From an uncultured Candidatus Binatia bacterium (GTDB lineage: Bacteria > Desulfobacterota > Binatia > UBA9968 > CAXXLF01), in the NCBI GenBank assembly GCA_965218425.1, contig OZ244621.1, positions 1,792,001-1,856,000 of the forward strand: a stretch of DNA of 64,000 nucleotides, read 5' to 3'. The position numbers were made by a program. Below, piece by piece: positions 24,001 to 27,000 of this stretch. How positions within the stretch are numbered: position 1 is the stretch's first letter; every line of letters starts with the position of its first letter.

Positions 24001-27000
24001 CATGATAGCAACCGTCGAACTTCACTATCTTGTCGCGTTGGGTGTAGGCCCTCGCCAGACGAACCGCACTCATGATTGCTTCCGTTCCCGAGCTTACCAA
24101 CCGTAACTTCTCTACGGATGGCATTCGCTCATACACCATCTCGGCCAACACTACCTCGCCCTCCGTTGGTGCGCCGAAGGTGGTTCCCCTAGCTGCGGCT
24201 CGCTTCACGGCAGCTAGAATTCGTTGATCCGCATGACCGAGGATAAGCGGCCCCCAAGAGCCGAGATAATCAAGGTATTTCCTGCCCTCATGGTCCACCA
24301 GGGTAGCTCCCTTTCCCCGCTGTATTACTAGTGGTGTTCCGCCCACAGCTTTCCAGGAGCGCACAGGGCTGTTGACCCCGCCCGGGATCCTGTTATATGC
24401 ACGGGAAAGTATTTTGTCCGACTTACTTCTCGCCATAGACTAATGAGCCTCGTAGCATCAGATGAACGGGGTTTCAACAACTAAGGGATAAAAGTTCCCC
24501 TCCCTATCTTTTCCCTTGCAAAGACAAGTGAAAATGATTATGAAATGCTCCTCCAATCCTTTAACAAGAATTTGCTCAACATGTTGGACAAGAATTAAAT
24601 TCTTAATGCTGTTCTTTGTGATGTTGCCTTTGCCCAGCTTCTCATGGTCCTCGATTCCAGCGTATCAACATGTTCCTTACGACTATCTCTCATGGTTTCT
24701 CACACTGTGGAAGGGATCATTCCACCGTCATTCATGCCTTAAAAACCGTTGAGGAGAAAATCCAACAGGATCCGTACGTCCAAGCCACCGTAGATATACT
24801 CACTAAATCATTGAAACCCTAGCTGGGGATAACCTGTGACTGACGTTGGGAGTAACGTGGATAAAACCAGTATCATGGGCTATGATGACACTTAAAGTTT
24901 AGATAGAGCGTAAACCACCCTTTGAAACGCACAATGAAAATCATTATATTTCAGCACCTTGGGGTGTTTTCATCTGTTACCCACAGGACTTACAGTTACT
25001 ACTGATATATTTTAATTAAGAGAGAAGAATAAGGGCTGGTTAATTGCGGAAGGAGTCCGAGCAATGGAATTCAAGGCTAGACGAGAAGATTTTTTAAATG
25101 CGCTGTATTGGACCCAAAGTACGGTCGAACGCAGAACCACTATGCCCATTCTGGCAAATGTGTTGATCGAATTTCAAAAAGGAAACACGCGCGTCACGGC
25201 AACGGACTTGGAAGTAGGGGTCAGGGCAAAACTGGAGGGAGAAATTCTTCAAGAAGGTGCCATCACCATAAATGCAAAAAAACTCTATGAAATAGTTCGA
25301 GAATCCGGAGGGGACGCGATTCAGTTAAAACGTCTGGAAAATGACTGGGTGGAAATAAAAAGCGGAAAATCAATTTTCAAGATGGTGGGTTTGGATCCAA
25401 AGGATTTTCCCAGTTTTCCGGAATTCGGTGATGAACATTTATTTTCTGTTCCTGCAAAAGTTATGAAGGAGATGATCGATAAGACAATGTTTGCTGTATC
25501 CACTGACGAGACCCGCTCAAATCTCAATGGGGCGTTCCTGGAGGAGGGGGAAGGGGGAAAACTCAGGATGGTAGCTACGGATGGACATCGTCTAGCTCTC
25601 ATTGAAAGGGCCGTAGGAAGCCTTGGTTTGGCTAAGGGGGTAATTCTGCCCAGGAAGGGATTGGCTGAGCTGAAAAAACTCCTCGAAGAATCCGACGATG
25701 AAATGGCCCAATTTGGTTTTAAGGAGAACATAGCCTCAGTTCTGAAAGGTAATGTAGAACTCTTTATGCGTTTGTCGGAAACGGATTTCCCTGACTACGG
25801 CAAGGTAATACCTAAGGCAAATCCCTTCAATGCCAGGGTAGAACAGCGTGGGTTCCTACAAGCCCTCAAACGGGTTTCCATCCTGTCCAGTGAGCGGTAC
25901 AAGGGGATAAGGATAGAGGTGAAGCCGACAAATATGTCCATATCGGCAAATAACCCGGACTTGGGGGAGGCGGTGGAGGAGCTAGAGGCGGAGTATGAGG
26001 GAAAGACCCTGGCAGTGGGGTTTAACGCCCGCTACTTGATTGATGTTCTGAGCGTGCTGGGAGACGAGAGGGACGTGGGGATCGAAATGAAAGACGAATT
26101 GAGCCCGAGCCTGCTCAGGAAAGACGGGGATGACGGCTATATGTACGTGGTCATGCCCATGAAACTTTAGGTGGCATCGGTATAGGAGACCACCCTGGTG
26201 GCTGTCCACGAACATAAAAAAAATGCCGCGCATGGTCTTGGTGTCATGGTGGTGACAGTAAGCGACACGCGGGATGAGCACACGGATCAAAGTGGTCAGT
26301 TAATAAAGGAAATGTTAGCGGAGGCAGGGCACAGGACCGTAGGGTATAGGATTGTCAAAGACGAGCCAAGAGGTATTGAAGGGCTCTTACGCGAGACTCT
26401 GGCAAGGAAAGACCTTGAGGTTATTATACTAAACGGTGGGACCGGGATAGCGCCGCGGGACGGCACCTATGAGGTGGTGAGTCGTCTCTTGCAAAAGCGA
26501 CTCGATGGATTTGGGGAGATCTTTCGTTATCTGAGTTTTCAAGACATTGGCTCGGCGGCAATCATGAGCCGTGCCTGTGCTGGCACTGCGGGAGATAAAG
26601 CCATGATTTCGTTGCCGGGTTCCACAGGCGCGGTACGACTTGCTATGGAACGGCTCATACTCCCCGAAATAGGTCATATGGTCTCACAGTTGCGAGGATA
26701 ATGAAGGTAAAGGTTAGATTCTTTGCCGCTCTCAAGGACCGGGTAGGGACCGGTGAGATCACTAAAGAAGTGGCGGAAGACTGTACTGTGGGAAAACTGT
26801 GGGATGAGTTACAGAAGGACTATCCAAAACTTGCGCCAGTAAATATGAGATTGCTCTATGCCGTCAACAGAGACTACGTGAGTACAGATCATGCGCTTAA
26901 GGACATGGACGAGGTGGTTTTCGTGCCGCCTGTCAGTGGCGGTTAGAATATGTATCGTGTGACGGAAAAAGCCCTCGAGCTCCAGGAGCTCATTGACTTT

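Follow-up and report, generated by a model that had tools for sequence, protein, structure and literature searches.

In Helicobacter pylori and Bacillus subtilis, oriC is bipartite (oriC1-dnaA-oriC2) and contains a basal unwinding system (PMC3479198, PMC8287927). PMC3479198 reports that H. pylori survives deletion of its chromosomal dnaA when a plasmid supplies a copy of the gene, and that the upstream boxes of oriC1 could not be deleted even with an ectopic dnaA. In other bacteria, dnaA is described apart from the origin, as in E. coli and in Ochrobactrum anthropi, whose candidate origins are 882 kb apart (PMC8287927, PMC4403523, bioRxiv 10.1101/2025.08.05.668638), or on a second replicon, as in Paracoccus denitrificans (bioRxiv 10.1101/2025.08.05.668638). 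Two complete dnaA genes have been reported in Desulfovibrionia and Chlamydiales (bioRxiv 10.1101/2025.08.05.668638), and a tandem dnaA pair in Acidaminococcus fermentans (PMC4403523). The linkage of dnaA and oriC is among the most conserved bacterial arrangements, and its breakage is usually inferred from end states only.

Here, we analyzed a 64,000-bp window (C1:1,792,001-1,856,000) of the single 4.46-Mb contig of an uncultured Candidatus Binatia genome, G000, in which the origin-linked dnaA has been reduced to a relic, and compared it with its same-genus sister G001, with G002 from a second genus of the family, and with G003 and G004 from a third; g1 and g2 below denote genera. The ancestral layout of the family would be that of H. 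pylori and B. subtilis, with a box pair upstream of dnaA, and boxes, trios and an AT-rich element between dnaA and dnaN. In contrast to H. pylori, however, the upstream box pair has been destroyed in G000, while in G002 and in the metagenome locus L040 it stands about 100 bp from the downstream half. As in E. coli, Paracoccus and Ochrobactrum, the initiator gene of G000 is not beside the origin and would act in trans. Unlike in these bacteria, oriC appears to have stayed by dnaN, parABS and the skew minimum, the gene having left by duplication and deletion, and a relic together with living intermediates records the route. Like the genomes with two dnaA genes, G001 has two full copies; the Binatia family, by contrast, has resolved the two-copy state by twice deleting the copy at the origin. 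In lying far away, without an unwinding element, the second copy also differs from the tandem pair.

Table 1. Features of the origin region of G000, in window coordinates
Feature	Position	Strand	Remarks
hemL (presumed)	23144..24436	-	430 aa; ORF call; orthologs adjoin dnaA in relatives; left neighbour of the origin region in the order
Putative promoter of the lost dnaA, kept	24516..24544	+	-35-like TTGCAA, 17 bp, weak -10; predicted function
Deletion junction	24696..24714 (break 24704/24705)	+	Alignment to G001
dnaA relic	24709..24822	+	Last 37 codons and stop; end of domain IV
DnaA-box-like site	24824..24832	-	1 mismatch; first of the boxes in the downstream half of the origin
DnaA-box-like site	24856..24864	-	1 mismatch
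DnaA-box-like site	24977..24985	+	1 mismatch; beside the trios
DnaA-trio run	24990..25007	+	Four consecutive trios, 10 bp from the box; one trio and one broken trio before
AT-rich stretch, putative unwinding element	25008..25032		84% AT over 25 bp
dnaN	25064..26170	+	368 aa; single copy; TIGR00663 above cut-off

The survey's finding had described a remnant of 42 dnaA codons between hemL and dnaN. A remnant does lie in this 627-bp gap between the minus-strand gene, which we take to be hemL, as that finding named it, and the plus-strand dnaN, but its length has to be corrected to 37 codons and a stop, the first residues of the longer reading being DNA upstream of the deletion junction. The identities given for it (79% over 42 aa to the sister origin copy, 49% over 41 aa to the distant copy g00023) were reproduced by tblastn, but they include these non-dnaA residues; over the true 37 codons, identity is 32/37 to the origin copy of G001 and 19/35 to g00023. 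The DnaA C-terminal domain profile matches the relic weakly (E 0.023; 17.1 bits versus a cut-off of 31.5), and with these codons alone the origin dnaA is incomplete. An in-frame ATG at 24670, created by the junction, opens a 50-aa frame through the relic (24670-24822); no ribosome-binding site was evident for this frame, and G001 has no ATG at that place.

The putative promoter of the lost gene was kept and is now about 520 bp upstream of dnaN. Upstream of the origin and distant copies, its TTGCAA-type motif has been preserved in G001, G002, G003, L037, L039 and L040. A strict promoter scan returned two sites versus 1.4 expected, which is chance level, and the motif at 24516..24544 was not among them. 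The old dnaA promoter probably serves dnaN now, without its autorepression boxes.

Based on the alignment of the gap with the intact hemL-dnaA-dnaN region of G001, two blocks of 84-85% identity flank a net loss of 1,319 bp, which includes the perfect DnaA-box pair upstream of dnaA. The junction itself forms a degraded head-to-head pair of DnaA boxes with one and two mismatches and a 1-bp spacer; the pair of the sister is perfect. In the 1,704-bp span of G001, there are exactly two copies of GTGGA, one within the second upstream box and the other in dnaA, at the right break, and copies of TCACA lie 57 bp from each other at the left break and within the first box; the G000 junction reads TCACA-C-TGTGGA. 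Most likely, the junction would have arisen by a 1,261-bp slippage between the GTGGA repeats and a 57-bp slippage between the TCACA repeats, with the loss of one base. One deletion combined with one substitution also fits, and the repeats are then left without explanation. The relic has accumulated four amino-acid changes on its own branch versus one on the G001 branch, a difference that did not reach significance as a test of neutral decay (Fisher p 0.08-0.55). Since it contains no internal stop or indel and few changes, against a difference of 18-19% in the nearby intergenic DNA, the deletion may be recent, as these figures weakly suggest.

We recomputed the lowest point of the cumulative GC skew at contig position 1,816,819 (window 24819), at the relic, in agreement with the 1,816,818 claimed before. 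The gene mnmG, two parS-like sites, scored against a consensus, and parB are located 37-40 kb to the left of the relic. gyrB does not belong to this neighborhood; its position, 1.52 Mb, is some 295 kb away from dnaN. The three box-like sites, the trio run and the AT-rich stretch of Table 1 align across all eight family origins examined. According to the rule for the basal unwinding system that we took, with the trio pattern, from PMC8287927, a DnaA box with at most two mismatches stands within 0-16 bp of at least three trios; in G000, a box with one mismatch is followed, after a spacer of 10 bp, by four trios. A genome-wide scan gave a score of at least 9 to 14 of 1,004 sites, the relic-side origin among them, and this was the sole one of the 14 then followed by at least 75% AT, both thresholds (score 9 and 75% AT) having been set after looking. 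An origin profile built from four non-g1 relatives matched the hemL-dnaN gap alone (E 3e-21; next match E 1.6). There is no perfect DnaA box in the gap, and the window has two versus 3.4 expected. The high-affinity upstream box cluster in cis of the H. pylori type is absent from G000, where the pair is down to sites with one and two mismatches. Because the skew minimum, parABS and the module of boxes, trios and AT-rich DNA all lie at or near the relic, the sequence supports the view that oriC stayed in place while dnaA left; the earlier placement, made by skew and parAB synteny, is thus joined by the profile and the module. No match to a dif consensus was found in the genome, so the terminus is placed by the skew maximum.

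A genome-wide profile search identified one full DnaA in G000, g00023 (C1:18047-19363, minus strand), located 1.80 Mb from the relic, as the survey's finding had stated for its sole working dnaA. g00023 scores 560.8 bits against TIGR00362 (cut-off 343.9) over residues 4-436 and is full-length, its N-terminal, AAA+ and C-terminal Pfam domains are all present, and the core segments that we take to be the Walker, arginine-finger, sensor-II and DHSTVIHA segments are invariant in 10 aligned DnaAs. Its dN/dS of 0.16 relative to the distant copy of G001 (hemL, 0.14; nuclease, 0.13) indicates purifying selection. Because it is the only copy and is under such selection, we infer that g00023 initiates replication at oriC. 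It is 88% identical to the distant copy of the sister and 72-73% identical to its origin copy, which reproduces the values reported before (88% and 72%). If the contig is circular, g00023 lies 73% along the longer arm and faces with the fork. Upstream of it are a promoter motif of the origin-copy type and two perfect DnaA boxes 23 bp apart, in line with the boxes noted previously. The gene adjoins that of a stand-alone 5' nuclease (C1:20097-21005), in a block between the 3' end of a tRNA(CAT) and the nuclease gene. The G000 genome gave no second, Hda-like hit with the DnaA AAA+ profile, and a scan of six loci for non-coding RNA at either dnaA site returned tRNAs only.

In the order, 109 of 123 genomes have a DnaA match, and G001 alone of the 123 has two complete dnaA genes, as the survey had held for the sister genome; G000 has one. 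Among the 107 genomes with both genes, 104 have dnaA no more than 2.5 kb from dnaN; two of the three exceptions, G000 and G002, are real, and the third, G103, is due to a contig break between the genes (105 of 107 when it is counted). These tallies include the unpublished G065, G067, G083 and G101, which no other claim uses. Of 57 metagenome dnaN loci, 33 were examined: 27 have dnaA upstream, five stop short of where it would be seen, and in L040 the gene next to dnaN on that side is hemL. The origin dnaA is intact in G001, L037, L038 and L039, of which the last three are the nearest relatives (DnaN 88-92% identical). At the nuclease site, dnaA was read in G000, G001 and G002, again as reported earlier, and in none of five outgroup loci, two of which are short, with some 0.7 kb (G003) and 0.55 kb (G004) of upstream sequence. 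L040 is known from its origin-side locus, and the distant-copy sites are those of G000, G001 and G002. Different contigs carry the two loci in G001 and in G002, where their distance would be at least 0.70 and at least 0.59 Mb, respectively, on a single chromosome. Upstream of the nuclease gene, G003 (L096:295-365) and G004 (L097) carry an attachment-site-like 3' fragment of tRNA(CAT), at the site that holds the dnaA block in g1 and g2.

A quick tree of DnaN and HemL gave ((G002,L040),(L039,(G000,G001))) with support values of 99/94/99/99. The origins of G002 (L030:9303-9981) and L040 (L040:3335-4000) are free of dnaA and keep the upstream box pair, as a fused form of the bipartite layout; no relic was found in their gap, the best permissive tblastn matches having E values of 0.10-0.37. 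In G000, the box pair was lost and 37 codons were kept, whereas in G002 and L040 the whole gene was lost and the box pair was kept. Since the deletions are not nested and G001, with the gene intact, is the sister of G000, the alignments show at least two losses of the origin copy in the family. The same two observations rule out one loss shared by G000 and G002. A single translocation of the original gene is also ruled out, given that G001 has both copies.

A protein search found seven more clusters 82-90% identical to g00023, one of them that of G001. In the larger DnaA tree, the resulting clade of eight distant-type clusters is sister to 10 g1 origin-type sequences plus P0011, the G002-type clade falls outside the g1 group, and all are inside the family's own DnaAs. 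Synonymous divergence between the distant and origin copies is near saturation. From this clade and this divergence, the second copy is judged to be an old duplicate rather than a new one. Distant and origin copies of g1 come together in the tree, instead of all distant copies forming one clade, with support of 82/88 in the smaller tree and SH 96 in the larger one. Without P0011, the whole-protein tree has SH 16 and AU p 0.46 (AU p 0.35 in the smaller set), values that neither establish nor reject a monophyletic group of distant copies. The gene ends favor a distant-copy clade (SH 92 and 94), whereas residues 104-400 favor the g1 clade (SH 99, AU p 0.087), in windows chosen after seeing the alignment and with diagnostic sites interleaved 5 versus 5. 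These conflicts suggest gene conversion in the AAA+ core after one duplication, and a paralog is the likeliest reading of the distant copy. P0011, a DnaA protein, alternates between the origin and distant types (for example, 58-66% versus 82-89% identity over residues 401-438, and the reverse over residues 1-80), and would be either a conversion product or a chimera in the assembly of its one contig.

We consider it probable that an old duplication of dnaA was followed by repeated deletion of the origin copy, that the distant DnaA acts in trans, and that the loss was most simply neutral. In the ancestor of g1 and g2, dnaA with its promoter and upstream boxes would have been copied between the tRNA(CAT) and the nuclease gene, the half of oriC that unwinds being left behind; copying of the gene with its upstream region is supported by the promoter motif and boxes common to both copies. 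Both copies, as seen in G001 and presumably in other lineages, would then have been long under purifying selection, with gene conversion probably acting to some extent on the AAA+ core. At least two deletions removed the origin copy, one in the G002/L040 lineage and one in G000, the latter falling late on its own branch and most likely arising by slippage between 5-bp repeats. Today, following established DnaA biology, the distant DnaA would bind the kept boxes and trios and open the AT-rich element before dnaN, and the perfect boxes at the distant gene would serve autoregulation. Loss of the origin copy would most simply be neutral because that copy was redundant. The upstream boxes may be only regulatory in Binatia, or the G000 origin may now be monopartite. 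Replacement of the initiator by a paralog, as the survey had read it, is therefore supported, but for G000 it is already complete and not in progress.

An assembly that dropped or collapsed the origin dnaA could imitate this loss, the genome being an uncultured single-contig assembly with at least one neighboring gene split relative to G001. We compared contigs of four of the ten listed read runs with window positions 22000-28000. In three runs from three studies, any of which may be the source of the assembly, a single contig spans this stretch with no differences, and among the matches listed there is no loose end at the junction; the fourth run, X6, is fragmented, and its pieces listed leave a hole over the junction. 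Additionally, the breaks sit on 5-bp repeats, and two other lineages, G002 and L040, lack the gene through another deletion. An artefact has next to no chance of being the explanation and was rejected on the three spanning contigs: the loss of the origin-linked dnaA in G000 is real. The distant copy might also be a xenolog that displaced the native gene after arriving, with a tRNA-integrated element, from a related Binatia lineage. Its block lies between the 3' end of a tRNA(CAT) and the nuclease gene, the outgroups G003 and G004 carry their tRNA fragment at the same site, and the tree position of the G002 copy is not settled. Nevertheless, the distant copies nest in the family DnaA clade beside the g1 origin copies (SH 99 and 96), the GC and GC3 contents of g00023 (0.486/0.588) are near those of native genes (dnaN, 0.480/0.534; hemL, 0.569/0.599), and no integrase was recognized among the ORFs listed around the block. 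Viral contigs gave one candidate relative and none confirmed, and phage carriage of the copy was rejected for this reason. We thus regard a xenologous origin as unlikely.

It is decidedly unlikely that the losses were selected, with a late-replicated dnaA, at 73% of the longer arm, changing the timing or dose of the initiator favorably. Both inferred losses (2/2) removed the origin copy, many lineages had kept both copies (8 and 10 clusters), the distant copy is oriented with the fork, and it has more changes on the G000 branch (26 versus 14, p 0.08). Two events show no bias, however (sign test p 0.5), losses of the distant copy would be invisible in metagenome loci, and the difference in rate gives p 0.15 and 0.27 with the other two outgroups, so that faster evolution of the sole copy was not significant; gene-dose effects are also expected to be weak in slow growers. 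Very improbable is a distant locus that is, or is becoming, a second or replacement origin, the role that the survey had left beside autoregulation for the boxes there. The locus has the sole pair of perfect TTWTNCACA boxes within 30 bp genome-wide (in two further perfect pairs closer than 300 bp, the boxes are separated by 116 and 230 bp) and a local skew minimum at 15,455, 2.6 kb from g00023, the skew rising by 648 across 19 kb. The arm has 13 such rises, four of them larger, and the features of a dual origin of the P. aeruginosa type are missing: KOPS orientation does not flip (7+/20- before, 5+/16- after), trio scores reach 9 at the relic against 3-5 at the distant copy, and this locus gives no match to the origin profile. 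In G002, the next gene starts 30 bp past the dnaA stop, which leaves no room for an unwinding element. Autoregulation is the favored role of the boxes. A bolder account, which we hold to be rather unlikely, is that the initiator was moved repeatedly under selection to a late-replicating site, tying DnaA synthesis to the end of replication; G000, without the upstream half of a formerly bipartite origin, would run on a minimal origin with no perfect box, and the only close pair of perfect boxes, 1.8 Mb away, would be an autoregulatory and titration site.

Relative to the systems described above, the end states are known, both the separation of dnaA from oriC and the presence of two dnaA genes in a genome; what is new is the full visible path between these states and an origin without its upstream box half. 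The ancestral state, the two-copy state and two separate origin-loss states occur in one family, and the scar of a deletion is still readable. Our full-text search returned nothing on dnaA in Binatia, subscription papers being mostly outside its scope. It also returned no account of an origin-linked dnaA replaced by a distant paralog, in a literature covered mostly without subscription papers and without supplements; the tables of the Weigel preprint could list similar cases. The family offers a natural test of two questions: is it of consequence where dnaA lies, and does a bipartite origin need its upstream boxes? In G000, placing oriC or the genome start by dnaA would err by 1.8 Mb.

Two further observations concern neighboring genes. 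A membrane-protein gene at window positions 28088-29526, outside the stretch checked against reads, is one 479-aa frame in G001 and is split into frames of 300 and 179 aa in G000. PF00476, the polymerase domain of DNA polymerase I, was found in none of the four family genomes searched, including the single-contig G000, and 67 of the 86 order genomes that are at least 90% complete have it. The family genomes carry only the stand-alone 5' nuclease, without this domain, and the distant dnaA is next to the nuclease gene.
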